In this document: piece by piece, positions 25,774-55,216 of the stretch
Layout: every line of letters begins with the position of its first letter
Position numbering within the stretch: the first letter of the stretch is position 1
Source: Candidatus Bathyarchaeia archaeon
Lineage (GTDB): Archaea > Thermoproteota > Bathyarchaeia > Bathyarchaeales > Bathycorpusculaceae
Reading direction: 5' to 3'
Assembly: GCA_049970895.1 (NCBI GenBank)
Contig: JBMFMB010000006.1
Span: 1 to 64,000, forward strand
Length of the DNA: 64,000 nucleotides
Notes under the pieces: model-generated
Database searches by the model: none
Told to the model about the DNA's origin: nothing
The model's input: the letters and a program-made list of their open reading frames with translations, nothing else
Program-made: the position numbers and the translations under genes

Positions 25774-25849
25774 AGAACACACCTAACATAAACTTCCAAC
25801 CATAATTGACCAAAGCAACTATAAAAGTTTAACAAAGCCTCATTGGAAG

Positions 25850-25954
25850 TGGGCCGGACCGGATTTGAACCGGTGACCTTCGCCGCGTGAGGGCGACGTC
25901 CCTAGGCCTCAACATTCTCGCTTTATCATTGTTAGCCAGCTAGACTACCGGCCC
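25850..25954 (-). tRNA. tRNA-Val(CAC) with a ~31-nt D-loop intron (about 25902-25932)
   Basis: Acceptor GGGCCGG/CCGGCCC, anticodon arm TCGCC-CTCACGC-GGCGA, T arm ACCGG-TTCAAAT-CCGGT. Removing 31 nt restores the D arm GTCT-AGCTGGCTA-GGAC. Confidence 0.92.
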
Positions 25955-26684: not shown

Positions 26685-26866
26685 CGGGCGGTAGCTCAGC
26701 TTGGTAGAGCTTCCGAGCCTGCTAGCGGCGACTAGCAGGCGGAGATGCTGTAGGCGTCCACCATAGGCGGCATTTGCCGTTCTGGTGGGCGTCACCCAGC
26801 CTACCAAGCGTACATTTGGGTGCAGAAACCGGAGTGTCGCAGGTTCAAATCCTGCCCGCCCGACCA
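26685..26866 (+). tRNA. tRNA-Tyr(GTA) with two introns: 30/31 (26716-26746, 31 nt) and 37/38 (26754-26827, 74 nt)
   Basis: C1:G72 acceptor CGGGCGG/CCGCCCG-A-CCA. Splicing restores TCCGG-CTGTAGA-CCGGA. BHB central helices are CTTC/GGAG and CTGT/GCAG with 3-nt bulges. Confidence 0.93.
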
Positions 26867-27149: not shown

Positions 27150-27795
27150 TCGTTATGCTTCTTTTTTGTTTTTGCTACAATAAGTGTTGTTATCGTTATT
27201 AATGCTGCAGCATCAAGCTTGGGGATAGTTCTAGGACTATTGTTACTTCTTTGGTTGAGTGCTGGTATTGAAAGTATATGTACGTGGCTCCCGATGTCCA
27301 GTTCCGCATGTAAAGGGGCTCCTGATTGTTTACTAAGACTTTGTAGTTGTTTTGCTACAAGCCGCTGACGATAATGTTTGGTATGTCAACTCTGCAGAAC
27401 CTACTCCCGCGTCTCCGGGTATATTGAAATTTATTTGGAAAGCAGATATTGAAGAGTTGCTTATGACTGAAATCTCTTGGTCGGTATTGGGCCAAATTGC
27501 ACTTCAAAATAGTTACATGGATTTGCAGTAATATTAACAACTGCGTCGACGACACCGTCTCCTTCGATAATTGCTTCTCCCTCCCCAACAAGAAATACGG
27601 CCTTGTTCACAACAATATGCGAGTAGGAACCGCCACAACATGAATAACGTCTCCGGGATTCGCCACGTTTATGGCCGCCTGTATCGTTGAGTAATCGTAT
27701 GGAACCCGAATGTCGCCAGGATGAGCATCAACTAGTTTAAGCCTAAAAGCAAACATTAGAACACATAATAAAAGTTTTTCAATTTTTTACTACCA
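27150..27795 (-). pseudogene. Decayed NosD/parallel beta-helix surface protein with PEF-CTERM-like anchor
   Basis: Hand translation gives a signal-like segment, then IRVPYDYSTIQAAINVANPGDVIHV, several frameshifts, and TYIYFQYQHSTKEVTIVLEL with hydrophobic and basic tail. Boundaries approximate. Confidence 0.7.
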
Positions 27796-27920: not shown

Positions 27921-28331
27921 ATGGAGAGGTTTAAGTTTCCAAGCGAGGAGTGGATTAAAGCCTACAAAGAAGAGCTTAACAAGAATGAGGCTTATGCTGA
28001 AGCTGCCAAGGACTGGGAAGGCGATTTCCTCTTCATAGTAACCCCAGACGAGGGCTTGGAAAAGGAGATGGTTTTTTACGTGGATCTTTGGCATGGGAAG
28101 TGCCGCGAAGCCTACATGTTGCCCAGCAGGGAGGCTAAAACTGCTGAGTTTGTCTATGAAGGGCCATACTCGAACTGGAAGAAGCTTATAATGGGACAGC
28201 TAGACCCCATCCAAAGTTTGCTCATGCGGAAGTTCAAGCTGAAGGGGAACATGGCCAAAATTATGCGGTACACTAAGGCTGCTTCGGAGCTTGTGAAAAC
28301 AGCCAGCAAAGTCCCAACAGAGTTTATTTAG
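27921..28331 (+). CDS. SCP2 sterol/lipid-binding domain protein
   Basis: FPSEEW...WEGDF...G.Y.NW...LDPIQ...KLKGNM pattern. Confidence 0.85.
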   Translation: MERFKFPSEEWIKAYKEELNKNEAYAEAAKDWEGDFLFIVTPDEGLEKEMVFYVDLWHGKCREAYMLPSREAKTAEFVYEGPYSNWKKLIMGQLDPIQSLLMRKFKLKGNMAKIMRYTKAASELVKTASKVPTEFI

Positions 28332-28345
28332 AGGCTCTGATCTTA

Positions 28346-29512
28346 ATGTGGGAGTTTACATCCCCCAAATCCATAGTTTTCGGTGAGGGCGCACTCGAAT
28401 ATTTGAGGGAGATCGAAGGCAGAAAAGCGTTAATAGTAACAGACAAGGTAATCCGCGATTTGGGCTTCGTCGAAAAAGTTGCAAACCACCTTATAGATGC
28501 AGGATTAAGCATAGAAATCTTCGATGAAGTGGAGCCCGAGCCTTCAAAGGAAACAATAACAAAATGTGCAAAACATGCGGAACTTTTTGAACCGGACTGG
28601 ATTGTTGGGTTAGGCGGTGGAAGTTGCATTGACGCGGCTAAGGCTTCGTGGGCGCTATACGAAAGGTCAGACATTCAAATTGACGAGATAAGCCCATTAC
28701 AGAAGCTTGGCTTAAGGAAGAAGGCGAAGCTTATAGCGATTCCAACCACAAGTGGGACGGGGTCTGAGGCCACATGGGCAATAGTCATCACCGACACGAA
28801 GGAGAGGAGGAAGATGGAGCTCGCCTCAAAAGAGCTTGTTGCCGACATTGTTATCCTTGACCCCCAGTTTCCCTTAACCATGCCAAAGAGGCTTGTGGCT
28901 GACACCGGAGTTGATGCACTTGTAAATGCGTTAGAGGCTTATATCTCACAGTGGCGAAACTATTTTTCAGACTTTCTGGCCATAAACGCCGTGCGAGCCA
29001 TTTTCAAGCATCTTCCAAGGTCTTACAGCAACAGCCAAGACAAGGAAGCAAAGGAGAATATGCATTATGCAGCCACCATAGCGGGACTTGCCTTCAGCAA
29101 CTCCCAAATATGTGTTGCCCATGCCATGGGCCACGCTTTGGGCGCCTTATTCAAAATTTCCCACGGCAGAAGCGTGGCCGCGGTCTTAACATTTGCAGTT
29201 GAGTATATGGCGAAAGAGGCGATGGAAAGGTTTGGAGCCCTTGCCGATGCTGTTGGAATAAAGGCGGAAACAGGCAAGGAAGCCTTGGAAAAGTTTGTCC
29301 AAGCCTTAAAGAGGCTTTTGAAGGATGTTGATGAGCCAACTTCAATAAGGGAGTTGGGAATAAACTGGAGCGATTTCCAAAGCGAGCTTGATAATCTTGT
29401 GGAAAGAGCTTTGGGTTCCACTGGCACAATAGCAAGCCCAAGAGTCCCAACAGCAGAAGATTACAGAAGGCTGTTTGTCTACGCATATGAAGGGAAAACA
29501 GTGGACTTCTAG
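28346..29512 (+). CDS. Iron-containing alcohol dehydrogenase
   Basis: GGGSCIDAAK, PTTSGTGSE, DAL and HAMGH...HG metal ligands. Confidence 0.93.
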   Translation: MWEFTSPKSIVFGEGALEYLREIEGRKALIVTDKVIRDLGFVEKVANHLIDAGLSIEIFDEVEPEPSKETITKCAKHAELFEPDWIVGLGGGSCIDAAKASWALYERSDIQIDEISPLQKLGLRKKAKLIAIPTTSGTGSEATWAIVITDTKERRKMELASKELVADIVILDPQFPLTMPKRLVADTGVDALVNALEAYISQWRNYFSDFLAINAVRAIFKHLPRSYSNSQDKEAKENMHYAATIAGLAFSNSQICVAHAMGHALGALFKISHGRSVAAVLTFAVEYMAKEAMERFGALADAVGIKAETGKEALEKFVQALKRLLKDVDEPTSIRELGINWSDFQSELDNLVERALGSTGTIASPRVPTAEDYRRLFVYAYEGKTVDF

Positions 29513-29576
29513 ATAGGCACCTCTTTCCCTTTTTCTTTATTCGTGGCGTGTTAAAAAATGGAAGGTTTAGTGATGT

Positions 29577-31343
29577 TTAGCGTTGTACGATTTCCGTTAT
29601 TTCTTTCATTGTTTCCTTTTCTTCTTCTGGAAGCTCGCATCCCTCAAGCCATATGGAAGCCAGAACAGCAAAGTCTGGGGGTATAACTTCCCTATCAATT
29701 CTAATGTCTAGAACCGCTGGTTTTCCGGAATCAACAGCCCTCTGCAGTGCTGGTCTTATCTGGGATGGCTCAACAACCCTCTCGCCGTAACAGTTCATTC
29801 CCCGTGCAATCTCGTCATACCTTATGTCTGAAAAATCAACCCCAATATACCTCTTCGAATAGAACATTGTTTGCCCAGCCCTAATCATTCCCCAAGCACA
29901 ATCATTTAAAACCACAAACACTACTGGCAGTTGGAGACGGCTTGCAGTTTCAAGCTCCTGAATGTTTAAGCCGAAGGCTCCATCACCAGTTATGCAATAA
30001 ACCTGCCTATCTGGATAGGCAAGTTTCGCAGCAATAGCGTATGGGATTCCGGCGCCCAAGTGTCCAGAATCGCCACTCACACAACTGATGTAAGTGTTCG
30101 GTTCATAAGCCCTATTTAGGTAGAAGCACCAAACAGCGGTATTTCCTCCATCAACAACTGTTATGGCATTTCTTGGAAAGAACTCCCTAACTTCCCTCAC
30201 AACACGCAATGGATGAATTGGCACAGTATCCAGCCGTGACATTTCCTCAAAGTTTTCAAGCCACATCTTTTCCAGTCGCTTATAATCCTGAAGGAAGGGA
30301 TTCTCTTTTCTAGGAGGCGTATGCCTTTTAACGGCCTCCAGCAAGGCCTTAAGGGTTGGTTTTGCATCGCCCACAATCCCCAAATCAACAGGTCTGTTCA
30401 AACCAATCATGTTGCCTGAAATGTCTATCTGGATAATCTTCTGCTTTGGTGGTTCACCCCACGCTGGCGGTTTCCCCCACATGTCCAGGGCGCCAAGCCT
30501 GCAGCCAACAACGAGAACCACGTCAGCCTCAGCCTGAGCCACTATGGCTCCATTGCCAGGAGCTGCTGGGATAAGGCATAAAGGATGGTCTTCAGGTACG
30601 GCTCCTCTCCCACTCATTGATGTGGTGACTGGGGCTTGCAGGTATTCAGCCAACTCTATAAGCTCCATTGAGGCTCCAGATCTAAGAACCCCGCCGCCAG
30701 CGTGGATTAGAGGTGTTTTTGCTTCCGCAAGCATTTTTGCGGCTTGCTCTATGAGGGCTTGGCTTCCGACGGGTTTTTCCATAGCCCTATAACTTTTTGG
30801 AGGCAAAATTTCTAAATCCGCTTCTTCTCCTGTTTGGAAGAGAACGTCTGAAGGGAGGTCGAGGTGCACTGGACCCGGCTTCTCAGACATAGCCATCCTA
30901 AAAGCCCATTGCGTAAGTTCGGGTATGCGCCTCCAATGGGATACTACGGCGTTCCATTTTGTAACAGCCTTAAAAAGCGAAAGCTGATCTAGCGCTTGTT
31001 GAGAGCCCGGGTCTGGGTATGAACGCCAAGACTGGTTTTGGGCCGTAATCACAATGATTGGTATGCTGTCTGCAAAGGCTGGATAAACGCCCCCGATAAG
31101 GTTTGCAGCTCCTGGGCCGACTGTTCCTATGCAGACTCCGGGTTGTCCAGTTGTCCGTGCCCAGGCATCAGCAGCATGGGCAGCCGCAGCCTCGTTACGC
31201 ATAGTTATAAATTCGATACGTTCATCCTTATAGATGGCATCCAAAAGTGGATAAAGCTGATCTCCCGGAACGCCAAACACATATCGGACGCCCTCTTGCA
31301 CTAGGCAACGTTTCAGAACCTCACCGCCAGTTAAACGAGCCAT
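29577..31343 (-). CDS. Thiamine diphosphate-dependent enzyme (acetolactate synthase-like / lyase family)
   Basis: FGVPG, RNEAAA, GPGAAN, GPVHLDLP and ThDP motif GDGAFG-x-LND; no regulatory subunit or ilv genes nearby. Confidence 0.88.
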   Translation of the reverse strand: MARLTGGEVLKRCLVQEGVRYVFGVPGDQLYPLLDAIYKDERIEFITMRNEAAAAHAADAWARTTGQPGVCIGTVGPGAANLIGGVYPAFADSIPIIVITAQNQSWRSYPDPGSQQALDQLSLFKAVTKWNAVVSHWRRIPELTQWAFRMAMSEKPGPVHLDLPSDVLFQTGEEADLEILPPKSYRAMEKPVGSQALIEQAAKMLAEAKTPLIHAGGGVLRSGASMELIELAEYLQAPVTTSMSGRGAVPEDHPLCLIPAAPGNGAIVAQAEADVVLVVGCRLGALDMWGKPPAWGEPPKQKIIQIDISGNMIGLNRPVDLGIVGDAKPTLKALLEAVKRHTPPRKENPFLQDYKRLEKMWLENFEEMSRLDTVPIHPLRVVREVREFFPRNAITVVDGGNTAVWCFYLNRAYEPNTYISCVSGDSGHLGAGIPYAIAAKLAYPDRQVYCITGDGAFGLNIQELETASRLQLPVVFVVLNDCAWGMIRAGQTMFYSKRYIGVDFSDIRYDEIARGMNCYGERVVEPSQIRPALQRAVDSGKPAVLDIRIDREVIPPDFAVLASIWLEGCELPEEEKETMKEITEIVQR

Positions 31344-31499
31344 AAAGACCCCATAATATTAACGAGTCTCTACCTTATAATTTTCGTCTTCAATTCAAAT
31401 CGTGAAGTTTACATAACCCGTAGATTCGATACGGTGCATTCAGCCCATTTCAATAGGCGCTGTAGACTTCTTTTCATATATTCACTGATAAACATCTGA

Positions 31500-31825
31500 G
31501 CGTCTATACAGCCTCTGGCGCAAAGACCGCTTTCTCTAAACAGGCCAACCCTTTCTTAAAATTCTTAACAAAACCAAGATGATGGAGGCCCTCACCATTT
31601 TCTTTTAGAAATTTTGTATGTTTCCCCCTTCATGAATTAATTCTAGCTGACCTCACCCAATTGGAAAACACGATTTTCAGTTTCACATCATCCTTTTCGA
31701 ACTCTATAGGCGGCAGCAACTCTTGCTTCAAAATTTTCACATAACCTTGCGGCTTTTTCTAAGTCCTCGATGACAACCCCTATCTGATCGATTTTAGAAA
31801 ACATGTTCATTCTATTTTCAGTCAT
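31500..31825 (-). pseudogene. VOC/glyoxalase (methylmalonyl-CoA epimerase-like) pseudogene
   Basis: Fragments KIDQIGVVIEDLEKAA, QLELI and FLKENGEGLHHLGF separated by frameshifts; 3' boundary approximate. Confidence 0.75.
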
Positions 31826-31916
31826 ACGCCAACTGTAAGGATGTTTTAAAATAATCCTGATTAAAAATTACCCCAGATCTAATCCACGCAATGTACCATT
31901 TATGCGCTATGTCCAT

Positions 31917-33107
31917 TTATAGGGTCCTGGTTTCTGTTTCAGCCAATTCTATTTTGATCTCCTTTTTGATGCTGTCTATGAGTTTTTCGACGCTAATAAT
32001 GTTTGCTTCTGGCGGATAAACCCCTGCCTTAACATCTTTTGCTTTTGCAAGTTCTAGGGCGGCAAGAGCCGCTGGTAAGGCTGTTGCTTTGGCTGCGTCT
32101 TTGCATGCTATGCGATATTTGATAATGTGTTCCTTTCTCTCCTTGACGCCTTTAACAACTGTTGCTAAGCCTACGCCTCCTAATGCATAATCACCTAAGC
32201 GCTCGTAAAGAGGTCCGATTGACTTTTCTGTTTCTTCAGGCGGCGTTATTTCAGATAGCGCCAACGTTATGGCAACTGCGATTTCTCTTGCCTTAAACGT
32301 GTGATCTCCTACTTTGATTTCTTTGAGGCTTGTTAACCCAAGTGAAGAGAAAACTTTTGCTACATCGTTTAGATCTGAGGGCCAGACTCCTCCCTTGTTG
32401 CATACATTCTTTACTTTAATATATCTTGGAATCGTAATGGGTTCCGGATGACCTGCATGGGCAACTTCCCAAACGCCTATTGGTTCTGGAAACTCAAAAT
32501 GCTCCGGCTCTGAAAGAGCTTTAATCATCATCCATTCTCCATTTTTATAGGTTGGAATCATGCCTGTTATCGCGTGAAAATAGTGGTCCACGATGGCTGG
32601 CCCCATTGTGGGGTCTATGGCTGTCCAAATCCAATAGGTTCTAATTTCGAAAACTTCGTCGAGCTTTTGCGCTCCATACCAAGCTAGTAGGTTTGTTATT
32701 CCTGGCGTTGCTCCCAACCCAATGATGGCTGTAATCTTTCTCTTTTGCGCTTCTTCATGAAGTTTCAAGGCTTCCTCTGTGGCGTCATAATCATCATTTA
32801 TATCAACAAATTTAACGCCAGCCCTTAATGCAGCTTTCAAAACGGGAACACCAAATCTGTGGAAGGGGCCGAGTGCGCTGACAGCTACATCAAAGCCTTT
32901 TATGGCTTTTACTAAAGAATCTTCTGATGCAGCATCAACATGAAGAGTATCAATGTTGCCACCGATTATTTCCGCTGTTTCCTTAGCCTTCCCAATGTTT
33001 TTGTCGCCTATGGTTATTTCCGCTGTTGGGTCAAGGTGTTGCAGTTCAGAAACTATTACCGAACCAATGTGGCCTGCTCCACCAAGAACAAGTATTTTCG
33101 TTGGCAT
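31917..33107 (-). CDS. Saccharopine dehydrogenase-fold oxidoreductase (paralog 1)
   Basis: LGGAGHIG Rossmann motif, GPF, VDINDD, GLGATPG and HPEP. Confidence 0.85.
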   Translation of the reverse strand: MPTKILVLGGAGHIGSVIVSELQHLDPTAEITIGDKNIGKAKETAEIIGGNIDTLHVDAASEDSLVKAIKGFDVAVSALGPFHRFGVPVLKAALRAGVKFVDINDDYDATEEALKLHEEAQKRKITAIIGLGATPGITNLLAWYGAQKLDEVFEIRTYWIWTAIDPTMGPAIVDHYFHAITGMIPTYKNGEWMMIKALSEPEHFEFPEPIGVWEVAHAGHPEPITIPRYIKVKNVCNKGGVWPSDLNDVAKVFSSLGLTSLKEIKVGDHTFKAREIAVAITLALSEITPPEETEKSIGPLYERLGDYALGGVGLATVVKGVKERKEHIIKYRIACKDAAKATALPAALAALELAKAKDVKAGVYPPEANIISVEKLIDSIKKEIKIELAETETRTL

Positions 33108-33177
33108 GATGAAATTGATTAGGGCAAAGAACTTATAAATTTTTGCTGATTCAAGCTTACCATTACGATGCTCAAGA

Positions 33178-33400
33178 ATGTTTGGATACATGGAAAAATT
33201 CGCAGAATTAATCTATCAACAAACAAGATAACCGAGGAATTTCCAGACCAGAATACTCTTAAGATGTTTCTCGGTGGGAATGAATCGGCAACATTATTAT
33301 ATTTATTTTAAAGAAGTTAAAGAGGGAATTGACCCATTGAATCCAGAAAACAAGTTAATATTCATGACAAGTCCTTTAACTGGAACCCTATCCGAGCAAG
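33178..33400 (+). pseudogene. N-terminal remnant of a second aldehyde:ferredoxin oxidoreductase
   Basis: MFGYM.K / RINLST / FLGG / IDPLNPENKLIFMTSPLTGT across frameshifts, matching the N-terminus of the intact AOR downstream. Confidence 0.75.
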
Positions 33401-33754
33401 GGAGATATGTAGTGGAGCGCCCTGACAGTGAGAGGGTCAAATCCTTTATAGTGTTGAAAAGGAAATATGAGAGCCAAGGTCACAGCCGAATATATAAATC
33501 AATTTATTGTATTGTAGGATAAACTTCCATCTTATGCTGTGCCGACATTTATTTAACTCCAAAAGGATTTGCGCTAACTCACAATTGTGAAATTTTCAAA
33601 AGGAAAACCAAAGAAGAAGAAATATCTAAAATGGAAGAAGCGAAAGACAGCCTGTTAGAAATTGTGAGCGTAATATTTTCTTAAAATACCAAAATCCTTG
33701 AAAATAGGCAAGTATTAAATCTGTTTGCCACAGAATTTTAAAGCCGGTGGTTAA

Positions 33755-35602
33755 ATGTCAGGGGGTTATATGGGGAAAATTCTGAGAGTGAACATGACCA
33801 CTAAAAGCTTGAAGGTTGAGCCAACTTCTAAAGAGGTTGCAAGAAAATACTTAGGCGGTAAAGGTTACGCCACATACCTACTATACAAGTATTTAAAGGA
33901 GTATGAAAAGGCAGGGATTTCGCCAAAAGACATTGACGCATTGGATCCAGAAAACGTCCTAATATTTGCAACAGGCCCGGGGACTGGTGTTCCGGGCTTT
34001 CCGTCGTCTGGCAGATACCATGTGATGGCTTTGAAATCGCCTCTGACCGGCTCTATTGGAAGCGCAAATTCTGGTGGGGAGTTCGGGCCCTTCCTAAAGT
34101 TTTCAGGGTTTGACGCTGTTATAATTGAAGGAGACTCAGAGACTCCGGTGTACTTGGCCATTGTGAATGGCGAAGCCGAGTTAAGGGATGCAAGTAGCCT
34201 ATGGAGCAAAAACGTTTTCGACACTTGCAGAATATTGAGGGATAGGGTTGGCGGCAAAAACACAAGCGTAGCCTGCATCGGGCCTGCTGGGGAAAATTTG
34301 GCGTACATGGCATGCATAGTCAATGACGAGCATAGGGCTGCGGGTAGAACAGGCTTAGGAGCTGTTATGGGCTCGAAAAGGCTTAAGGCGATTGTTGTTT
34401 CCGGAGAGGAAAAGGTTCCGGTTGCCGAACCTAAAAAATTTGCTGAAGTTTCAAGAAGATGCCTAGACGCGATGAAGAATAATGCTGTTACGGGTGTTGG
34501 ACTGCCAACATATGGCACAGCCATCCTCATAAACATAATTAACACTGCTGGCGGGTTGCCTTACAAGAACTGGCAGACAGGCGTGAATCCGGACGCGGAG
34601 AAAATAAGTGGAGAAACTCTTGCAGAAACATATCTGACAAGCCGAAGGGCATGCTGGGGCTGCCCAATTGGATGTGGAAGAGTCACCAGCGTCAAATCTG
34701 GGCCATTCCAAGTTTTAGCGTCAGAAGGTCCCGAATACGAGTCAGTTTGGGCTTTGGGAAGCAGCACAGCCGTAAAAGACTTAGACGCAGTTGTTAAGGC
34801 CAACCACTACTGCGATGAACTTGGACTGGACCCGATAAGCATGGGCTCAACAATAGCAGCAGCTATGGAACTCAATGAGAGGGGATACATTCCACAAGAA
34901 GATTTGCAAGGCTTAGACTTGCGCTTTGGCAACGCTGCAGCGCTTGTGGAAGCGGTTTGGCGAACAGCCTATAAGACCGGATTTGGAAAATATTTGGCTT
35001 TAGGTTCGAAGAAGCTCTGCGAAATTTACGGGCATCCAGAACTCTCTATGAGCGTTAAGGGCCTAGAAATGCCAGCCTACGATCCTAGAGCCATTAAAGG
35101 CATAGGCTTGAACTATGCAACAGCCAACAGAGGAGGCTGCCATGTAACAGGATACACCGTTTCGCCTGAAGTCTTGGGAATACCGGAGAAAATTGACCCG
35201 TTGAAGGCTGAAGGAAAAGCGAAATGGGTTAAAATATTCCAAGACTTCACATGCGTGGTTAACTCAACCGTAAACTGCTTATTCACAACATTCGCCCTAG
35301 GCGCAAAGGATTATGCAGAGCTTTTGTCGGCTGTCACTGGCTGGGAATTAACAGAGGATGAAATCCTAAAAATTGGAGAGCGCATCTATAACCTAGAAAG
35401 GGTTATAATCAACAAGTACGGATTCGATGGAAAAGACGACGCACTGCCAAGACGCTTGCTAGAAGAGCCCATGCCAGAAGGTCCAGCAAAAGGCCAAGTA
35501 ACAGAACTTGAAAAAATGAAGGATGAGTATTACAAGCTTCGCGGCTGGGTTAACGGCGTACCAACAAGGGAGAAGTTGGCTGAGCTTGAAATAGAAATTT
35601 AG
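33755..35602 (+). CDS. aor: Tungsten-dependent aldehyde:ferredoxin oxidoreductase
   Basis: GYMGKILRVN, KSPLTG, GRTGLGAVMGSK, CWGCPIGC, GPEYE, DELGLD and YYKLRGW motifs. Confidence 0.95.
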   Translation: MSGGYMGKILRVNMTTKSLKVEPTSKEVARKYLGGKGYATYLLYKYLKEYEKAGISPKDIDALDPENVLIFATGPGTGVPGFPSSGRYHVMALKSPLTGSIGSANSGGEFGPFLKFSGFDAVIIEGDSETPVYLAIVNGEAELRDASSLWSKNVFDTCRILRDRVGGKNTSVACIGPAGENLAYMACIVNDEHRAAGRTGLGAVMGSKRLKAIVVSGEEKVPVAEPKKFAEVSRRCLDAMKNNAVTGVGLPTYGTAILINIINTAGGLPYKNWQTGVNPDAEKISGETLAETYLTSRRACWGCPIGCGRVTSVKSGPFQVLASEGPEYESVWALGSSTAVKDLDAVVKANHYCDELGLDPISMGSTIAAAMELNERGYIPQEDLQGLDLRFGNAAALVEAVWRTAYKTGFGKYLALGSKKLCEIYGHPELSMSVKGLEMPAYDPRAIKGIGLNYATANRGGCHVTGYTVSPEVLGIPEKIDPLKAEGKAKWVKIFQDFTCVVNSTVNCLFTTFALGAKDYAELLSAVTGWELTEDEILKIGERIYNLERVIINKYGFDGKDDALPRRLLEEPMPEGPAKGQVTELEKMKDEYYKLRGWVNGVPTREKLAELEIEI

Positions 35603-35649
35603 AAAAGCAAAAATCCCCCTTTATTCTCCCTTTATTTTGCCGGAAGCGC

Positions 35650-35937
35650 TTGGCTTTGGTATCCGTAAAAATAATTCTTTTCGCAACCCTGCGAGGCAAA
35701 TACAAAACTAGAGAACTTGCTGTCACCTGTAATGGAACCCTTCAAAACATGATTGAGAATGCGTCTAAAATTTTAGGACCAGAATTTGTTGACGATGTTT
35801 ACGATAAAAAGCGAGGAAAAGTTAGAGACGACATGATTATTATGGTGAATGGGCGAAACATCAAAGACTTAGAAGGAGAGATAACCCTAAAAGACAACGA
35901 TGTAATAGCCATATTTCCACCCTTAGCCGGGGGCTAA
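35650..35937 (+). CDS. MoaD/ThiS ubiquitin-like sulfur carrier
   Basis: FATLR...VNGR...IFPPLAGG with C-terminal GG; adjacent to aor. Confidence 0.92.
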   Translation: MALVSVKIILFATLRGKYKTRELAVTCNGTLQNMIENASKILGPEFVDDVYDKKRGKVRDDMIIMVNGRNIKDLEGEITLKDNDVIAIFPPLAGG

Positions 35938-35949
35938 ATTCTTTAGGAA

Positions 35950-37225
35950 AGCATTCATATAAGTGATAAGTTCCCAGAGGCACTGCAGATAGAAGTTACA
36001 AACAGGTGCAACTTTAACTGTCAAATATGCATTAGGCGTGTTTGGAACGCAAAACCCCTAAACATGGACATAGCCTTATACAAAAATCGCAGAGGAGTGT
36101 TTCCTATTTTTGAAGAGGCTTATGCTCTACGGTTTTGGTGAGTCCTTCATCCACCCAAAATTCTTGAAAAGCTCCGAATAGCCAGAAAACGCCTTCCAGA
36201 CAGTGGAGAAATCCTCATAAGCACAAACGGCTCGCTGATAAATCCGGAAATTGCCAGCAAAATTGTGAAGGAAATAGGCGTGGATTCCGTATCCTTTTCT
36301 ATAGATACTGTTAGCCAAGACAAACTGAACCGTTTAAGAGAAGGCTCTGACTTCAACTTGATAGCCAACAACATTGAAACGTCGGCGAAAAGCAAGGATG
36401 AAGCTAAAAAAGATTCCACGCTAGGTTTGGAAACAGTCATCATGAAAGACAACTTTTCAGATCTTCCAGAACTCGTCAAGTTTGCAGCTGAGAATGATGT
36501 TGATTATATTCTAGCGTCCCATGTTGTGTTATACACGCCTAAAATTTTTGCAAAACCATGTATCTAACTTTGAGCAAAACAACCATTAAAATATTAAAGC
36601 CTTCTTTAAGGCATGACGCTTTATACGCGAATCCGCCATAGAGCTTTTCGGCAAAGCCTACAGCATGAAAATGGAGACAGCCTCAACAGAGCTTATCGAA
36701 GCTTTTGGACCGAAGCTGAAAAGGTTATTGGATTAATCTGCCATTGCTCTTAAGTTCAACAGATAAGCTTGAGGCATTAACCAGTTTATAAGAGGTTTTC
36801 CATGAAAGCGTAAAGATTGCCTATGAATACCAAATCGATTTGAGGCCGCCAAACTTGTACTCCGATGCCAAGGAAAGGAAGTGCCCCTACATGGAAAAAA
36901 GACTTTGGTTGTAAGATGGGGCAGTCTTCCATGCCAAGAATTCATGTACTCCCATCCAGTCTATGTTAACGCCCACAAAAAGACGTTCATGAAGTAATTT
37001 TGGAGATGCAATAAAAGAAGGATTAAAGATGTTTGGCAGAGGAAGCCCACGCCAACTTTAGAGAGGTTAGGCTAGACATAGCTACAAACTTTCCTTGGTG
37101 TGAAGACTGCCATATTCGACTCAGGATGCTTTTACACAAAGGCTAATGAAGTTGACTGTTATGCAAATGCACCAACATGCGACGAATGCCTATACAGCGT
37201 CGGTTTGGCACAATGCAACATCTAA
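35950..37225 (+). pseudogene. Radical SAM/SPASM protein (tungsten-oxidoreductase maturase type), multiply frameshifted
   Basis: IEVTNRCNFNCQIC, YGFGE..HP, STNGSL and Cys-rich C-terminus DCYANAPTCDECLYSVGLAQCNI spread over several frames; follows aor-moaD. Confidence 0.8.
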
Positions 37226-37230
37226 AAGGC

Positions 37231-38541
37231 TTATTCGAGGAGAAGCGAGACCGGCCCAGCCTTCCATGCTTCTATGGCTGCTTTCAGTTCGGGATGCTGC
37301 TCGGCGTATTGCTCCAGCGGAATCTTATTCATTACGGCTTCTATGGCTTGTCTGAAGGCTTTAGCTCCAGCCCTAGGTCCCATGGGATGGGCGTGGATTG
37401 CCCCGCCAGCTCCTATGGCTATGTCTGTGCCCAAATCGCTTATTAGTTGTGGGACATGAAGCTGCGTTATTCCACCTGATGGCATAGGCAACGTGGGCTT
37501 AATGTTGTGCATTGGGAATAGCATGGTTCTGCCAGCTTTCAGGTACTTCTCCCTTAGGAAGAAGGGTTGCTTTCCATAGGGTGCCGGATAAACCAGTATG
37601 TCCGCACCCGCAAGCCTCGGAAGCTTCGCCAAGGTCAAGTGGGATGACATACCCGACTCTGGATCCTCGTAGATGGCTCCAGCGAAGTCCATGTGGCCTA
37701 AAATTGGAACCTTTATGCTTGGATCTTCCGCCAAGGCTTTTAAAACGCCTATTCCAGCCACTAGGTGGTTGACCATTATGGCGTTTGCCCCAAGCTCTAT
37801 GACTTTCTCTGCAAACTCGAAGATTTTGGGCGCGTCCGCAGTCACATTTATCGTATACATTTTCTTTTCCCCAGTTTCTTGGGTGGCCTTGTCAACAACC
37901 TCCATATACTTAACGATTCTGTCTTCGACAGTGTTGAAGGGTGCATTAGCCAAAAGTTCATCATCTTTAACAAAGTCTGCGCCACCCACTAAAGCTTCAT
38001 AGGCGAGTTTTGCGCCCACATCTGGCGGGTAGCCAGTGCACGGCTTAATCATGTTGTTAAGTATTGGTCTTGCCTTTATTTTCAAGTATTCCCTTAAGCC
38101 TTGAACCCCGAATTTGGGGCCTTTAAACATTTCAAGATAGCTTTTTGGAAAGGTTAAATCCACTAATTTTAGCCTTCCAGCCATGGAAATGTTTCCGATA
38201 ACCGTTGTAAGAAGCATTGAAATTTCGTTCATGAAATTTTCGTAGGGGTAGGCTATCTGAACAATATAACGCCTCAATTTCACGTCGGCTGGGATCTCAT
38301 ACTCAAAGTCTGGAACCTCGTTTATGGCGATCACTTTGGCTATGTGCCTTTTCCGCAGCTCAACGGTTTCGCCTGGAACACGAATCCACGTTCCAGTGCT
38401 CTGCTCAACAGCCACAGCCATGGCAATCTTGTCCACGGGCCAGTCTCTTGGAACAGCCGCGTAGTATGTGGCTATAACATATTTTTCCGAGTCTATCCCC
38501 TCTGGCAAAGCTAATGGAAGGGCTTCAATTTCTTCTGACAT
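37231..38541 (-). CDS. RuBisCO-like protein (form IV)
   Basis: EQSTGTW, GN, KPCTG, DFVKDDE, GHMD, YGK, PSGG and GAGGAIHAHP. K177, R295 and H327 equivalents are substituted. Confidence 0.92.
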   Translation of the reverse strand: MSEEIEALPLALPEGIDSEKYVIATYYAAVPRDWPVDKIAMAVAVEQSTGTWIRVPGETVELRKRHIAKVIAINEVPDFEYEIPADVKLRRYIVQIAYPYENFMNEISMLLTTVIGNISMAGRLKLVDLTFPKSYLEMFKGPKFGVQGLREYLKIKARPILNNMIKPCTGYPPDVGAKLAYEALVGGADFVKDDELLANAPFNTVEDRIVKYMEVVDKATQETGEKKMYTINVTADAPKIFEFAEKVIELGANAIMVNHLVAGIGVLKALAEDPSIKVPILGHMDFAGAIYEDPESGMSSHLTLAKLPRLAGADILVYPAPYGKQPFFLREKYLKAGRTMLFPMHNIKPTLPMPSGGITQLHVPQLISDLGTDIAIGAGGAIHAHPMGPRAGAKAFRQAIEAVMNKIPLEQYAEQHPELKAAIEAWKAGPVSLLLE

Positions 38542-38608
38542 GAAACTTCACCAATTTAAATTCTGATAGATGAATTGTTTGCAGTGGTAAATATGTGTAT
38601 GTGTGCTT

Positions 38609-40162
38609 TTATTCAGCTCTTAAGTTTAGCCTCCGATACATTTGCCTATTATTCTTGTAGATACCCTTAAACTCTTTGAAGACTTTCTCATAAATGGCAG
38701 CGTTCTGCATGTTCGGCTTATAAACAGCGTCTATTTTCACCAGCTTTTCCGCATCCTCAAAGCTTTTGACATAGCCCAGAGCAATCATAGCTATTATTGC
38801 GGCTCCTTTTGCGCCAGCCTCTTTCGGGTCGCTGACCCTGTTTATTCTCTTGTTTAGGACATCTGCAAATATTTGGCACCAAACGTTGGATATTGCGCCG
38901 CCGCCTATGATGTTTATGCTTTCAGCTTTTCCGGCAAGCTTTTCCATATAGAACAATGCCCACTTCATGTTTAGGGCTACGCCTTCAAAAACAGCCCGAA
39001 CCATGTGCTCTCGTGTGTGTTCTAGGCTGAGGTTGTGGAATCCTCCTCTTACAGTTGGGTCGTCCAGCGGGGCCCTTTCGCCGAAGAGCCATGGCGTAAA
39101 TATTAAGCCGTCCGCGCCAGGGTTGATTCTCGCTGCCATTTCACCAAAAAGTTCATAGACATCTTCTCTGCTTTCCTTAAACATTGTGTTTTTCAGCCAG
39201 TCTAAGCATGCCCCGGCTGTTTCTTGTTCCGCCACGCAAAGGTACATTTCTGGGTTTGCACTGCAAATGCAGCCAATGTAATGGAACAAGTCCTTCTTCC
39301 TTTCCGAGAGGTGGCAGCCAAGCCAACCGCTTGTTCCAACATAGGCGTGGATTTTCCCCTCTTTTACTGCACCTGAGCCTACAGCTGCTGAAGCCACGTC
39401 CCCGGCTCCAACGACCACTGGTGTGCCTTCCAGCAGTCCTGTCTCTGCGGCTGCTTCCGCCGTGAGTTTGCCAGCTATGTCTGTTGCCTTCATTATTTCT
39501 GGAAGTTTGGCTCTGTCTATCCCATACTTTTTGAGGATTGCCTCTGACCAGTTGAATCTTCCCATTCTTGTGTCCATCATCCACCATATGTTGGCGTAGT
39601 CTCTGCTTATTACGAAGTTTCCAGTGCACTTGTAGACGAGGTAGTCTTTGCAGTCGAGGAACTTGTAGGTTTCAGCGTAAATTTTCGGCTGCTCCTCTTT
39701 AATCCATAAGATTTTGCATATCGGATCTTTCCCAACATGCCCGTAAATCCCGCCAGTTACGCTTAGAAACCTTATTAGGGTGAGCAGCCCATATCCGGCT
39801 ATTTTTATTATTCCGCGGCTCATTTTTTCAGCTTGCCCTTTCGCTCTTGTGTCAAGCCATATCATGCACGGCATTAGCGGCTCGCCGTCTTTGTCCACTG
39901 GAAGCGTTCCAGACATTTGAGTTGCAAATATGATGGCAGCAATGTCGGAAGGCTTAACATTCGTCTTTTCCAGAAGTGCCTTTGTGGTTTTTGTGACGGC
40001 GTTCCACCAGTCTAACGGTTTTTGTTCTGCATATCCGCTTTTTGGAAAGTATACTGGATATTCTGCAGAGGCATGTCCAACTATTTCGCCATCTAACCGC
40101 ACCAGCACAGCCTTATTGCTTGTTGTCCCAGTGTCGTGGGCGAGTATATATTTGCCTTTCAA
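38609..40162 (-). CDS. FGGY-family carbohydrate kinase (xylulokinase-like)
   Basis: HDTGTT, WLDTR, GAGD, GTSGW, PWLFGERAP, RAVFEGVA and GGGA motifs; start overlaps the upstream stop codon. Confidence 0.92.
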   Translation of the reverse strand: MKGKYILAHDTGTTSNKAVLVRLDGEIVGHASAEYPVYFPKSGYAEQKPLDWWNAVTKTTKALLEKTNVKPSDIAAIIFATQMSGTLPVDKDGEPLMPCMIWLDTRAKGQAEKMSRGIIKIAGYGLLTLIRFLSVTGGIYGHVGKDPICKILWIKEEQPKIYAETYKFLDCKDYLVYKCTGNFVISRDYANIWWMMDTRMGRFNWSEAILKKYGIDRAKLPEIMKATDIAGKLTAEAAAETGLLEGTPVVVGAGDVASAAVGSGAVKEGKIHAYVGTSGWLGCHLSERKKDLFHYIGCICSANPEMYLCVAEQETAGACLDWLKNTMFKESREDVYELFGEMAARINPGADGLIFTPWLFGERAPLDDPTVRGGFHNLSLEHTREHMVRAVFEGVALNMKWALFYMEKLAGKAESINIIGGGAISNVWCQIFADVLNKRINRVSDPKEAGAKGAAIIAMIALGYVKSFEDAEKLVKIDAVYKPNMQNAAIYEKVFKEFKGIYKNNRQMYRRLNLRAE

Positions 40163-41388
40163 GGTCCTTTAACCAGCGATTCTAGGCTTAATCTGTGAAC
40201 TTTGCCATCTTTATCGATGTGCTCGACACGGATGGGCAAGCCCACAGTTCCGCCTATTCTTATCTTCTCCTTTGCAAGCGTAAACAACTCAATCGGGTCC
40301 ACGGCGGCTTCTGGTGGAAAAACGCCCTTCAGCTTTATCTTCCCCATAGCCATAAGCATGGTTCCCAAGGCGGCTGGCACACCTGTCCCTTCCCGCATTC
40401 CCATGCCCCTCGAAGCCATAGAAAACACATATGTGCTTGGCTGACCTTTCTTCTTGCCTTTAACAACTATTTTTAGACAACCCATGGGCTCAGTTATCCC
40501 GGCTTCCTTCAAGAGTTTAGGCCTCTGATGCAAAGCGAAAGCCACTGCAAAATCTATTGGCGCAATCTTCTTCCCGTCAACTTCTATTGGCTCCTCGCTT
40601 GTCATTCCGAGGCGCACAATACCCTTAATAAGCTCGGCATATGCTGGGGGCAAAACCAAGCCGAGGTTTGTTACGCGGCGAACACCCTTAATATACCTTG
40701 GAAGAGTTATCGTCTCTGGATGAGGATAGGCGTAAACCCTATATGTTCCGACGTCTGCAAACTCAACATCCTCTTCTAAGGCTTTGCCGCTTTCCTCCAA
40801 AACCTTAACAGTCTTAAATTCTCCATCAAGAAACATCGGAACTGGTATTATCATGGAGTGTATCCTATGCTTAACAACCGCTGGCCCTTCGGTTTCCTCC
40901 CCTCCGTGAGCATGATAAATGTCTATGGCTTCAACCTCGTCCAGAAGCATGTCAGCACAAAATCTAACAAGAACATTTGCAACGCCTGGAGAGCTGCCCA
41001 TTCCTATAAGGGCTGAAATCCCAGCCTTTTTGGCTTCACCATCCATTTTTAAAAGCGCCTCAGTGGCGTCAACATCATCACATATATCCACATGGTTTAC
41101 CCCAGCCGCGATGCATGCTTTCAAAACTATTGGGGCGTACTTGTAGAATGGGCCAACGCAGCTTAATATGACATCAGAACCCTTAATCGTCTTTTGAAGC
41201 CGGCTTGAATCTGTAACGTCAATTTTTACCGCTGAAACGCCTTTAACGCCTATTTCTGATGCAAACTTCTTCGCCCTTTCAAAGGCGACATCTCCTATGA
41301 CAACTTCTGAAAACATTCCGCTTGATGCTAGAATTCTGGTGGCCATGCTTCCAATGGTTCCAGCTCCACCCAAAACTGTAACTTTCAT
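40159..41388 (-). CDS. Saccharopine dehydrogenase-fold oxidoreductase (paralog 2)
   Basis: LGGAGTIG, CVGPFY, VDICDD, GMGSSPG, HPET and GVFPPEA motifs. Confidence 0.87.
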   Translation of the reverse strand: MKVTVLGGAGTIGSMATRILASSGMFSEVVIGDVAFERAKKFASEIGVKGVSAVKIDVTDSSRLQKTIKGSDVILSCVGPFYKYAPIVLKACIAAGVNHVDICDDVDATEALLKMDGEAKKAGISALIGMGSSPGVANVLVRFCADMLLDEVEAIDIYHAHGGEETEGPAVVKHRIHSMIIPVPMFLDGEFKTVKVLEESGKALEEDVEFADVGTYRVYAYPHPETITLPRYIKGVRRVTNLGLVLPPAYAELIKGIVRLGMTSEEPIEVDGKKIAPIDFAVAFALHQRPKLLKEAGITEPMGCLKIVVKGKKKGQPSTYVFSMASRGMGMREGTGVPAALGTMLMAMGKIKLKGVFPPEAAVDPIELFTLAKEKIRIGGTVGLPIRVEHIDKDGKVHRLSLESLVKGP

Positions 41389-41499
41389 GTCATACACCAA
41401 CCTTTCAGAAATTAATGTTAGTCTTAAGATTATTTAGCATTTGTGGAACATAGACAAACAGCAAAACATATCAATTAAAATTCGTAAAACAGAGGAAAC

Positions 41500-42744
41500 A
41501 TGGGAAAAGCAGAAGTACATTCTTACCGTTGGGTTGTCCTGTTCACGTATATGCTTGTGGCTGTTGTTTCCCAAATCCTTTGGCTAAACTTTGCCCCAAT
41601 AACAACGCCTATAATGACATCCATATTCAGAGTAACAGAGTCTGACGTTGGACTCTTATCAATGGTTTGGCCATTGCTCTTCATTCCCGTATCCATTCCA
41701 GCTGGAATGCTCATAGATAAGAAGGGCTTCAAGTTTGGGGTTTCGATAGGAGCCCTAATAATGGCTGTTTTCGCTGTTCTGCGAATCTTTTCAGGAGAAA
41801 ACTTCACAATACTTCTCATATTCCAATCCTGCGCCGCGCTGGGTCAACCATTTGTTTTTAACGCTGTATCAAAACTCGTAACGTTATGGTTCCCCTTTGA
41901 AGAGCGTGCATTAGCCACAGGAATAGGCATAATGGGCCAATACATTGGAATGATAGTGGCTATGATGCTCACACCTTTTCTTGTGCCAAAGCCAAACATC
42001 GCATTATTGACCAACATGCTTGTAATCTATGCGGCAGTATCCGTGATAAGTGCAGCTCTCTTCATCATATTGGCTAGGGAAAAACCAAAATCTACCAGTC
42101 ATGAGGCAACAGCAGAAGAGGTTAAGGCTTCCATCGCATTCAAGGACATTAAGGGGTTCTTTGGGAAAAAGGATTTCATAATCCTTGAAGCCCTATTCTT
42201 CATTGGGGTTGGACTTTTCACGGCACTACTCACATGGCTAGAAACAATCTTAAACACACGGGGATTAGGCGCCACAGACGCCGGGCTAATCGGCGGAATA
42301 ATCATCATTGGAGGAATATTCGGTTCTCTAGCCATTCCTGGAATTTCCGACAAAACAGCACGGAGGAAACCCTTCATAATTATAGACTTGGCGGTTGCCG
42401 CAGTCATACTTTACTTTTTTGCTGAAACTGGTGATTTCCTAATTTTGGCCGTTATGGGCTTTATTTTGGGCTTCTTCCTCATGTCAGCCCTGCCAATAGG
42501 CCTAGAAATGTCAGCTGAAATTGTCGGTTCAGCTTTAGCTGGAAGTGCATCAAGCTTTCTTTGGCTATTCTCCCAGGCTGGCTCAGTAATTTTAATCTTC
42601 TTCATGGACGCTGTTAAATCTGCGACAGAAAGCCTCTACCCGTCAAATCCCTACTATCTTTCAGTTATATCCATATTCATATTAGACATAATCGCTTTGG
42701 TGCTTTGCCTACTGCTTAAAGAAACAGCGAAAGCCAAGGGTTAG
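41500..42744 (+). CDS. MFS transporter, FLVCR/SLC49-like
   Basis: About 12 TM helices; YRWVVL...WLNFAPI, GQPF and WFPFEERALAT motifs. Confidence 0.85.
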   Translation: MGKAEVHSYRWVVLFTYMLVAVVSQILWLNFAPITTPIMTSIFRVTESDVGLLSMVWPLLFIPVSIPAGMLIDKKGFKFGVSIGALIMAVFAVLRIFSGENFTILLIFQSCAALGQPFVFNAVSKLVTLWFPFEERALATGIGIMGQYIGMIVAMMLTPFLVPKPNIALLTNMLVIYAAVSVISAALFIILAREKPKSTSHEATAEEVKASIAFKDIKGFFGKKDFIILEALFFIGVGLFTALLTWLETILNTRGLGATDAGLIGGIIIIGGIFGSLAIPGISDKTARRKPFIIIDLAVAAVILYFFAETGDFLILAVMGFILGFFLMSALPIGLEMSAEIVGSALAGSASSFLWLFSQAGSVILIFFMDAVKSATESLYPSNPYYLSVISIFILDIIALVLCLLLKETAKAKG

Positions 42745-43430
42745 ATTCTGAAAACCTTAAACTTGCTCTTAAGAGCCTCCAAATCTGTGCTTCCAAACTT
42801 GGACTGGAGCTTTCGCTTTAGGGCTTCCCAGCTCACAGCATCCTTTCCGCCAAGCATTGTGGCAACAAACTGAACTTTTGCACATTCCTCCACCATCCTA
42901 TTTAAGAGAGATGCTTCCTCAACCGTTGAGCCAACAGTGATAATACCATGATTCTCCAAAATGACAGCGTTAAAGTTCCTAATCAGCCTTTGAACAGCCT
43001 CAGCTAACGCTTTAGACCCTGGCAACTCAAAGGGCACTATAGGCACTCCATTGGGAATATAAAGAAACATTTCCACCTGCAACGGAATTATCTCAACCCC
43101 AGCTATCCCGAAAGCTGTGGCAAATGGGGCATGCGTGTGAACAATCCCGTTGACATCATTTCTGACACGGTAAATTGCAGTATGTAAAGGTGTCTCTATT
43201 GAAGGCTCTTTAGCACCCTCAACCTTATTTCCATCTAAATCTACAACAATAAAATCTTCAGCCTCCAAGAAACCCATAGAAACACCCGAAGGTTTTATCA
43301 AAACCCTATCTGTTCCAGTAATTCGCGCGCTAACATTCCCTTCAGTTCCAACCACAAGGCCATAATTATATAATTGTCTACCAACATTTACTAAACTTTC
43401 CCTTAAAGCGTAAACAACATCCTTGCTCAT
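42741..43430 (-). CDS. Class II aldolase/adducin family (FucA-like)
   Basis: EGNVS, KPSG, PSIETPLH, HTH and NHG motifs. Confidence 0.9.
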   Translation of the reverse strand: MSKDVVYALRESLVNVGRQLYNYGLVVGTEGNVSARITGTDRVLIKPSGVSMGFLEAEDFIVVDLDGNKVEGAKEPSIETPLHTAIYRVRNDVNGIVHTHAPFATAFGIAGVEIIPLQVEMFLYIPNGVPIVPFELPGSKALAEAVQRLIRNFNAVILENHGIITVGSTVEEASLLNRMVEECAKVQFVATMLGGKDAVSWEALKRKLQSKFGSTDLEALKSKFKVFRI

Positions 43431-45118: not shown

Positions 45119-45170
45119 GGCTTAATCCTAACTATAATTGGGAAAAACATGCTTAAATATGCATTTAGGT

Positions 45171-46670: not shown

Positions 46671-46683
46671 CACGCGTTCCTCG

Positions 46684-48162: not shown

Positions 48163-48175
48163 TCACTTCGCCCCT

Positions 48176-50212: not shown

Positions 50213-50421
50213 CGCCTCACTTGAAACATAGCATTTGATTTCGCTTGTTTACCCCTCGTGTTTTGCGCCTTCCTAACCTTTTAAACCAGCTTTTTGAGAT
50301 ATAAGTCAACAATTTAAATTTTGTCTGGCATAATGCGACGTTTAAGCATTTCACCATAAAATCGTGGAATTATCAGCGAAACGGTTTTATTGCGAGCATA
50401 AAGTCTGCATCGCTGATAACC

Positions 50422-53828: not shown

Positions 53829-53831
53829 ATG

Positions 53832-54209: not shown

Positions 54210-54215
54210 TCCACT

Positions 54216-55205: not shown

Positions 55206-55216
55206 CCTTAATCCTC

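Follow-up and report, generated by a model that had tools for sequence, protein, structure and literature searches.

A Bathyarchaeia gene island of three modules that may serve one catabolic theme with a shared aldehyde sink

The window examined here, 64,000 nucleotides of Candidatus Bathyarchaeia archaeon (GenBank assembly GCA_049970895.1, contig JBMFMB010000006.1, positions 1 to 64,000 of the forward strand), corresponds to contig C6 in a genome of 1.34 Mb whose nearest relatives are labelled Bathyarchaeia. A 15-kb block within it (27921..43430) encodes a Form IV RuBisCO-like protein (RLP), a thiamine diphosphate (ThDP) enzyme and an aldehyde:ferredoxin oxidoreductase (AOR), and the original prediction held that the entire block might be one pathway funnelling aldehydes into the AOR and an alcohol dehydrogenase (ADH). 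We find instead an island of three modules, here called A, B and C, and our tentatively preferred reading is that they serve one catabolic theme with a shared aldehyde sink. The theme we infer would lead from a fatty vicinal amino-alcohol or diol through an alpha-hydroxyketone and an aldehyde to a fatty acid, with a sphingoid-type long-chain base as the best candidate substrate. Because modules A and C co-occur in distant anaerobes, they likely make up a so far undescribed route, independent of oxygen, that cleaves fatty amino-alcohols to aldehydes. Below, G-, L- and C-numbers denote genomes, loci and contigs, respectively, G000 being the window's own genome. The block comprises the following features.

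27921..28331, plus strand: SCP2-domain lipid carrier, module A (PF02036, 46.7 bits against a cut-off of 21.3)
28346..29512, plus strand: iron-type ADH (Fe-ADH), Asn194 variant, module A (PF00465, PF25137)
29577..31343, minus strand: ThDP enzyme of an uncharacterised clade, predicted alpha-hydroxyketone (acyloin) lyase, module A
31531..31825, minus strand: VOC pseudogene, methylmalonyl-CoA-epimerase-like (58-73% identity to the G265 copy)
31917..33110, minus strand: SDH2, saccharopine-dehydrogenase-like (SDH), likely amine dehydrogenase, module A accessory (PF03435)
33178..33639, plus strand: remnant in which the N-terminus of AOR' (33178-33414) is fused to an acyl-CoA synthetase C-terminus (33415-33639) (tblastn with G265 proteins; PF02730)
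33755..35602, plus strand: AOR of the P. furiosus type, module B (best PDB match 1AOR)
35650..35937, plus strand: MoaD/ThiS sulfur carrier, module B (PF02597; TIGR01687 at 47.2 bits, slightly under the cut-off of 49.5)
35959..37222, plus strand: radical SAM/SPASM pseudogene, kin of metalloenzyme and tungsten-cofactor maturases, module B (12 + 8 stops, two frames)
37231..38541, minus strand: Form IV RLP of the MIKPCTG / HMD / PAPYGK clade, module C (PF00016)
38609..40162, minus strand: FGGY kinase, module C (PF00370, PF02782)
40159..41391, minus strand: SDH1, saccharopine-dehydrogenase-like, likely amine dehydrogenase, module C (PF03435, PF16653)
41500..42744, plus strand: major facilitator superfamily (MFS) transporter, module C (PF07690)
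42741..43430, minus strand: class II aldolase, module C accessory (PF00596; PSxE, HxH and NHG kept)

These genes change transcription direction repeatedly, giving six units: SCP2-Fe-ADH (+), SDH2-VOC-ThDP (-), AOR-MoaD-radical SAM (+), SDH1-FGGY-RLP (-), MFS (+) and aldolase (-). Gene orientation thus rules out a single operon for the 15 kb; the division into three modules comes from synteny. The SCP2, Fe-ADH, ThDP, SDH2, AOR, MoaD and RLP genes are intact where the original prediction placed them, the FGGY, SDH1, MFS and aldolase genes are likewise intact, and the VOC gene it called dead lies in two frames with one stop when compared with the intact 140-aa VOC protein of G265. Two further ruins came to light: the AOR'/acyl-CoA-synthetase remnant and the radical SAM/SPASM gene, which in relatives is an intact gene of 430 aa and in the window has many stops and frame changes. 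No catabolic enzyme of the block scores above the NCBIfam cut-off of any named function. A scan for sigma-70 promoters and terminators, which does not extend to archaeal promoters, gave chance levels (31 versus 25.4 and 13 versus 18.3), and Rfam at gathering scores gave no match in 25500-46000.

The RLP and ThDP enzyme occur together across distant lineages. The window's RLP and ThDP proteins served as queries in the same genome samples from four classes. ThDP orthologs are present in 4 of 6 Bathyarchaeia genomes with the RLP versus 0 of 295 others, in 11 of 13 versus 9 of 138 in the class of G327 (Anaerolineae), in 2 of 6 versus 1 of 145 in the class of G341 (Dehalococcoidia), and in 7 of 10 versus 9 of 78 in the class of G323 (Archaeoglobi), for a total of 24/35 RLP genomes and 19/656 genomes without RLP; the G327-class counts exclude four RLP matches of 47-49% and seven genomes whose ThDP matches reached only 45-49%. 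Among 50 RLP genomes picked from the 80 RLP loci described below, 30 hold a ThDP ortholog (at least 50%) and 37 an SCP2 homolog, and in family f1 the identical 4 of 48 genomes carry RLP and Fe-ADH. Across 37 genomes with both proteins, the identities of RLP and of ThDP enzyme show no correlation from one group to another (rho 0.07 over 554 pairs). The trees also disagree, as G338 and G538 fall with Bathyarchaeia by their ThDP genes (FastTree) and not by their RLPs. The co-occurrence therefore does not derive from one co-transferred block.

This distribution makes it very improbable that the island reflects adjacency only, a tRNA integration site having collected genes without functional ties that now hitch-hike together. 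The tRNA-like genes to the left of the block, the decay of the VOC, AOR', acyl-CoA synthetase and radical SAM genes, and a neighbouring hydrogenase block that does behave in this way would all suit such an origin. It does not account for co-occurrence in three other classes without adjacency, or for ThDP-ADH-SCP2 and SCP2-ADH-AOR pairings that are conserved across phyla.

Only close relatives within the Bathyarchaeia have the modules joined; in other lineages A and C show no linkage. All three run together through to the ThDP gene at L041, L042, L044, L149, L150, L151, L154 and L157, and in G259 and G301 they can be joined over contig breaks (L148, at 100%, is simply the window sequence itself, and L049, L051 and L055 stop at the RLP and are uninformative on joining). 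The joined block occurs in five or more distinct flanking contexts, with flanks identified by eye from translations, so it moves as a unit. In G305 the block is split, yet a 24-residue tip of the radical SAM gene stays beside the RLP, marking the split as secondary. Module C (aldolase-MFS-SDH1-FGGY-RLP) stands alone among unrelated genes in G265 and G163. Module A of G265 lies on another contig as acyl-CoA synthetase, AOR', VOC, ThDP, Fe-ADH, SCP2, a LarA-family gene and SDH2, and the arrangement in G294 is similar; by comparison, the ruins in the window are remains of an older module A whose AOR' was replaced by AOR-MoaD-radical SAM. RLP and ThDP genes are ~465 kb apart on one contig of G648. 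More widely, partners were counted around the best 80 of 422 RLP matches, which have 56-99% identity and come from Asgard and other archaea as well as Chloroflexota, Bacillota and Actinomycetota, and AOR is near 6, ThDP near 3 and hydrogenase subunits near 0 of these 80 loci. The original prediction was to fall if the AOR/ADH/SCP2 and RLP blocks proved unlinked in relatives and not co-expressed. The first half of this holds outside a narrow clade, within which the blocks are linked.

Such a pattern could also arise if A and C were two parallel lipid-scavenging pathways with different substrates, meeting only at the AOR aldehyde sink and gathered into one island here, which we regard as unlikely though worth serious attention. 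It would fit the separation of A and C in G265, G163, G648 and nearly all bacteria, the occurrence of RLP and ThDP each on its own, the six transcription directions and the replacement of AOR'. It fits poorly with an MFS family and SDH paralogs common to both modules, with the same 4 of 48 f1 genomes carrying RLP and Fe-ADH, and with a block that has stayed intact through several moves. The MFS link comes from homologs of the module C transporter (37-47% identity) in Archaeoglobi operons of ThDP enzyme and zinc-type ADH (L315, L317, L323), the L315 operon having a radical SAM gene and MoaD alongside; as a control, 1 of 5 Archaeoglobi without RLP and ThDP carries the MFS gene, in a broken ZnADH-MFS-radical SAM cluster.

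Several findings weigh against a single theme. The overall count drops to 20/31 when the four search centres, picked for having both genes, are set aside, and the Dehalococcoidia contrast then becomes weak (1/5 versus 1/145, p 0.07). Fisher p values for the RLP-ThDP association are small and exaggerate its strength, since related genomes are not independent samples, the majority are incomplete and no neutral control gene was included; organisms that have lipid scavenging in common might show this profile too. The ThDP ortholog is missing from 20 of the 50 RLP genomes, 19 genomes have ThDP and no RLP, and outside close kin the RLP is near ThDP in 0 of 38 loci. The aldolase is found in only 12 of the 80 RLP loci, and G265, G163 and G294 are without an ortholog of this AOR. 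Acyl-CoA dehydrogenases beside RLPs were tried as a marker of a lipid substrate and rejected, as they are not one clade (23-54% identity between lineages). Neutral ceramidase (PF04734) was found in 0 of 5 kin and 0 of 151 Anaerolineae-class genomes in a search run without a positive control; free amino-alcohols or diols with long chains, derived from other lipids, could equally be the substrate. The one-pathway claim thus stands for the SCP2/Fe-ADH/AOR unit and the RLP-ThDP co-occurrence and gives way where it would require an obligatory linked pathway.

The core of module C emerges from the RLP loci. An FGGY kinase lies near 66 of the 80, an SDH near 35 and a class III aminotransferase near 29 (SDH and aminotransferase both in 1), so the core consists of amine enzyme, kinase and RLP. 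The aminotransferases are of three distinct types, and SDH or any of the three fills the amine step. The RLP clade (85 members) carries IKPC, in which K177 is replaced by Cys in 85/85, together with Met in place of R295 (HMD) and PAPYGK. It keeps KDDE, K175, H294, K334 and the Gly phosphate loops, which make up the carbamate/metal and P1-phosphate sites, and has lost the P2-phosphate residues (spinach RuBisCO numbering). Retention of the P1 site with loss of the P2 residues fits a 1-phospho-2-oxo substrate with an uncharged tail.

Known identities for the RLP were rejected in turn. The catalytic set of RuBisCO forms I-III (K177, R295, H298, H327) is incomplete, and TIGR03326 scores 293, under its cut-off of 497. 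MtnW and the methionine salvage pair MtnB-MtnW fail at NF007095 (349 < 409) and TIGR03332 (300 < 514), the aldolase scores 89 against 137 for MtnB, and the neighbours are FGGY and amine enzymes. The 3-oxo-isoapionate-4-phosphate decarboxylase OiaX scores 198 < 700. A structural model of the RLP matches RLP structures at 32-36% identity (including 2oek, 2zvi and 4nas). With MtnW (2oek, 2zvi, 4nas) and OiaX it shares the fold, the KDDE metal site, the P1-phosphate site and, by likeness, enediolate chemistry; PMC10176493 describes characterised RLPs as all making an enediolate from RuBP-like substrates. Unlike MtnW and OiaX, the window RLP (34-36% identity, under the cut-offs) has invariant MIKPCTG and HMD and is partnered by FGGY and amine enzymes, not methionine-salvage genes.

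RLP loci show further variety. A nitroreductase-family gene lies between FGGY and RLP in several Bathyarchaeia (L046 7209-7745, L049, L055), with a 75% copy on C8 of the window's own genome. Two divergent RLP-FGGY units of different clades stand back to back in Hodarchaeota (L052 4044-11308), and in Geothermarchaeales an aminotransferase-FGGY-RLP unit runs on into DUF2848 and a nitrilase-family amidohydrolase (L053 8417-12766). Alpha/beta hydrolases are found beside RLP or ThDP units at L111 1683-2522 (lysophospholipase-like), L293 7565-8410 and L317 8639-9418. A sister RLP group of the Anaerolineae class (47-49% identity), left out of the counts, has other neighbours: at L288-L290 (47%) these are, by eye, HAD phosphatases, an RpiA-like gene and an FAD oxidoreductase.

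FGGY kinases, class II aldolases and RLPs normally act on sugars. Module C might accordingly degrade some small and polar amino-polyol (an amino-tetritol or an amino-pentitol; a lipid head group would be one example) to dihydroxyacetone phosphate (DHAP) and a short aldehyde, with SCP2 in an unrelated fatty alcohol route. The RuBP-like substrates of characterised RLPs (PMC10176493) and the lack of a ceramidase match (PF04734, 5 kin and 151 Anaerolineae-class genomes) lean this way; SCP2 homologs in 37 of 50 RLP genomes and the co-occurrence of the RLP with an SCP2-linked ThDP clade lean the other, as do the genes of a Burkholderia operon, and we consider this alternative improbable.

That operon, L312, is one of the RLP-free FGGY-aldolase-aminotransferase operons (L308, L312, L103) that share one of the aminotransferase types of RLP loci; they occur on Butyrivibrio and Burkholderia ambifaria plasmids, plus L103. 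In the aerobic Burkholderia, L312 ends in an aldehyde dehydrogenase (ALDH) whose best solved relatives include class 3 and fatty aldehyde dehydrogenases, and also benzaldehyde dehydrogenase, and which adjoins an Mpo1-like fragment at this single locus. Mpo1 works in yeast phytosphingosine breakdown, according to PMC10398889. By analogy, the L312 ALDH, of class 3, fatty-aldehyde type, may be the aerobic counterpart of the AOR. An aldehyde product, as originally proposed, thus gains backing from one operon at a single locus, which hints at a long chain.

Two genes were also considered as S1P lyase candidates. The PF00282 match in the window's own genome is MfnA, scoring above the MfnA cut-off, and was rejected. 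In Archaeoglobi (L325 125-2640), a group II gene of the pyridoxal phosphate (PLP) type overlaps a TIGR00903 MFS gene (28-30% to the module C MFS); by its motifs it looks S1P-lyase-like, and as no curated model confirmed it, it was not counted.

In module A, SCP2 lies within 1.5 kb of the Fe-ADH in 16 of 21 Bathyarchaeia Fe-ADH loci, and AOR is present in 9 of 21. Of 301 Bathyarchaeia genomes, 21 have this Fe-ADH clade, among them every one of the 6 with RLP. Within 5 kb of the ThDP gene (39 loci from 38 genomes) an ADH is found in 26/39, SCP2 in 14/39, AOR in 5/39 and RLP in 0/39. The ADH partners are Fe-type or of two Zn-types resembling polyol or threonine dehydrogenases, and some loci have an SDH instead; SDH-like genes flank the ThDP gene in the window, G265, G294 and G480. 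SDH2 is 35-40% identical to SDH1 and 81% to the G265 copy. Saccharopine and carboxy(nor)spermidine dehydrogenase were rejected as SDH identities, since the scores are far below the curated cut-off (NF043000 at 51 and 28 against 800); PDB matches are weak (best E 2e-22). ThDP-FeADH-SCP2 also lies next to ribosomal protein and EF-1alpha genes on metagenome contigs (L158, L160, L163), with no RLP in the 10 kb read.

The residue at Fe-ADH position 194, where His is the usual iron ligand, varies with the neighbourhood: Asn or Thr directly beside ThDP, and His (in most) or Gln beside SCP2-AOR without ThDP. L166 has both, an Asn-type Fe-ADH beside ThDP and a His-type copy beside SCP2-AOR'. Asn/Thr-type Fe-ADHs next to ThDP are seen in the window (28346-29512) and at L139, L166, L244 and L261. 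As a ThDP-associated variant with Asn at the metal-ligand position, the window Fe-ADH does not have to serve as a general sink for aldehydes, the role first suggested.

The ThDP enzyme scores below every NCBIfam cut-off shown, and TIGR00118 (402 < 538) led us to reject biosynthetic acetolactate synthase. Its model (pLDDT 88) has structural matches at 25-31% identity and TM-scores of 0.84-0.88, among them benzaldehyde lyase, HKA synthase and HACL/S, with DhcHACS 8vzj on top; against benzaldehyde lyase and formolase the TMq is 0.86-0.88 at 25-26% identity, and Gln116 is invariant in the clade. The top match raises the prospect that the enzyme is a 2-hydroxyacyl-CoA lyase (HACL) and module A an anaerobic alpha-oxidation, in which a 2-hydroxy fatty acid would pass through its CoA ester to an aldehyde for the AOR and formyl-CoA. 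The acyl-CoA synthetase, LarA-family racemase and VOC epimerase-like gene beside ThDP in G265 would suit that chemistry; LarA-like genes, however, are near ThDP in only 2 of 39 loci. The CoA-binding arginines of HACL/S are R260 and R400 in ApbHACL/S numbering (PMC11271303; contacts of AcHACL are given in PMC8760513). At the sites aligned with 8vzj for these residues, a mapping made from sequence alignment alone, the clade has no conserved Arg, and it also departs from the G-I-P and F-E/Q motifs. Three residues further along, Arg411 is present in 36 of 37 clade members and occurs also in acetolactate synthase. We judge the CoA-lyase alternative quite improbable.

We therefore predict an acyloin lyase, on the strength of the modelled structural matches, the CoA arginines that are not kept and the dehydrogenase partners. 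With benzaldehyde lyase, HACL-HACS and HKA synthase the enzyme shares the fold and would share C-C cleavage next to an alpha-hydroxy carbonyl; unlike them it belongs to a clade of its own with invariant Trp289, Trp295 and Trp405.

In module B, the AOR matches 1AOR best (E 2e-195) and keeps CxxCxxxC at 300-307, EYES, DELGLD, RGGCH and Cys508. The four 4Fe-4S cysteines, the pterin motifs and the closest relationship to P. furiosus AOR place it in AOR sensu stricto, and its cofactor metal is predicted to be of the tungsten type. It is one of four AOR-family matches in its genome. The intact radical SAM ortholog scores 274 bits with TIGR04311 and 267 bits with TIGR04317, both under the cut-offs. 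A TupA-like ABC transporter is encoded at G000 C12:14080-15030 with the TTTS motif of TupA; WtpA was not found. The MoaD pairing and cofactor motifs resemble the AOR-ADH acid/alcohol route of P. furiosus (1AOR), unlike which the window AOR is coupled to SCP2, acyl-CoA synthetase and beta-oxidation, a coupling that points to oxidation of long-chain aldehydes.

Under the preferred reading of one theme with a shared sink, the MFS transporter would import the amino-alcohol, SDH1 or SDH2 would remove the C2 amine to give a 2-oxo-1,3-diol, and the FGGY kinase would phosphorylate C1. A substrate with a 4-hydroxyl (phytosphingosine type) could then be split by the aldolase into DHAP and a fatty aldehyde. 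Without the 4-hydroxyl, the RLP would enolise C3, bringing about epimerisation or else 2-oxo/3-oxo isomerisation, and the acyloin bond would be cut by the ThDP enzyme to a fatty aldehyde and a C2 fragment, the Asn-type Fe-ADH making or disposing of the alcohol or carbonyl partner of the ThDP enzyme. SCP2 may carry the aldehyde to the AOR, which would pass electrons to ferredoxin as it oxidises the aldehyde. The fatty acid would then be finished by an acyl-CoA synthetase of this genome and a beta-oxidation cluster (ACAD-HADH-ACAD-thiolase-synthetase, C2:41361-49261).

L-Fucose and L-rhamnose catabolism use an FGGY kinase (FucK/RhaB) and a class II aldolase (FucA/RhaD). The proposed route shares their logic of kinase and ketose-1-phosphate aldolase, leading to DHAP and an aldehyde, and the window aldolase keeps the metal and acid-base motifs. 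It would differ in drawing the ketone from an amine enzyme, not an isomerase, in adding RLP and ThDP lyase, and in passing the aldehyde to AOR; window kinase and aldolase both score under the Fuc/Rha cut-offs. Eukaryotes degrade sphingoid bases with a kinase, sphingosine 1-phosphate (S1P) lyase, ALDH3A2, and HACL2 or Mpo1. The proposed substrate class and fatty-aldehyde intermediate resemble that pathway (treated in PMC10398889). In contrast to it, the block has no PLP lyase, the amine would go first, cleavage would fall to aldolase or ThDP enzyme, and an oxygen-free AOR would replace ALDH. The tie of ThDP, SCP2 and ADH to the RLP module is new here, and literature on Bathyarchaeia RLP, RLP-FGGY-aminotransferase, AOR-SCP2-ADH and sphingoid routes yielded no description of the system, most subscription journals and supplements lying outside its coverage. 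In its most specific form, an oxygen-free sphingoid-base route from Bathyarchaeia and Archaeoglobi to Chloroflexota, in which the RLP enolises a lipid-tailed ketol-1-phosphate, a new ThDP acyloin lyase acts, and SCP2 and tungsten AOR feed beta-oxidation and reduce ferredoxin, the proposal is doubtful.

The neighbouring group 4 [NiFe] hydrogenase, which the original prediction invoked to re-oxidise the ferredoxin, is genuine: its large subunit (55217-56806) has RICGIC and DPCFSC, and antiporter-like subunits are present. The hydrogenase starts 1.7 kb past the aldolase, behind an FrhB-CBS gene; the FrhB-CBS gene and hydrogenase operon span 43589-57600, ArsB-like and ClC genes break up the antiporter genes, and a tRNA-Leu (57758-57843) bounds the stretch. 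It occurs in 3 of 10 relatives, on other contigs and never beside the block. At L042 the hydrogenase is absent and the amidohydrolase that follows it in the window abuts the aldolase, so the stretch is probably a separate island. With no conserved linkage or co-occurrence, it is rejected as a fixed electron sink and is a bystander.

On the other side, just left of the block, are two intron-bearing tRNA-like genes (25849-25954 and 26685-26866), seen by eye and with relaxed ARAGORN only (default ARAGORN and Rfam gave none), and directly left of SCP2 a broken gene (27170-27790, minus strand) with a signal-peptide-like start and a parallel-beta-helix-like sequence (by eye).

With this proposal, two widespread uncharacterised clades, the RLP and the ThDP enzyme, gain a common function open to testing, and candidate genes are named for taking the product further. 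If it is true, a relative of RuBisCO acts on a lipid, anaerobes of sediments and hot springs would degrade amino-alcohol lipids by a route unlike that of the PLP lyase, and one of the many AORs of such genomes would acquire a concrete long-chain substrate.

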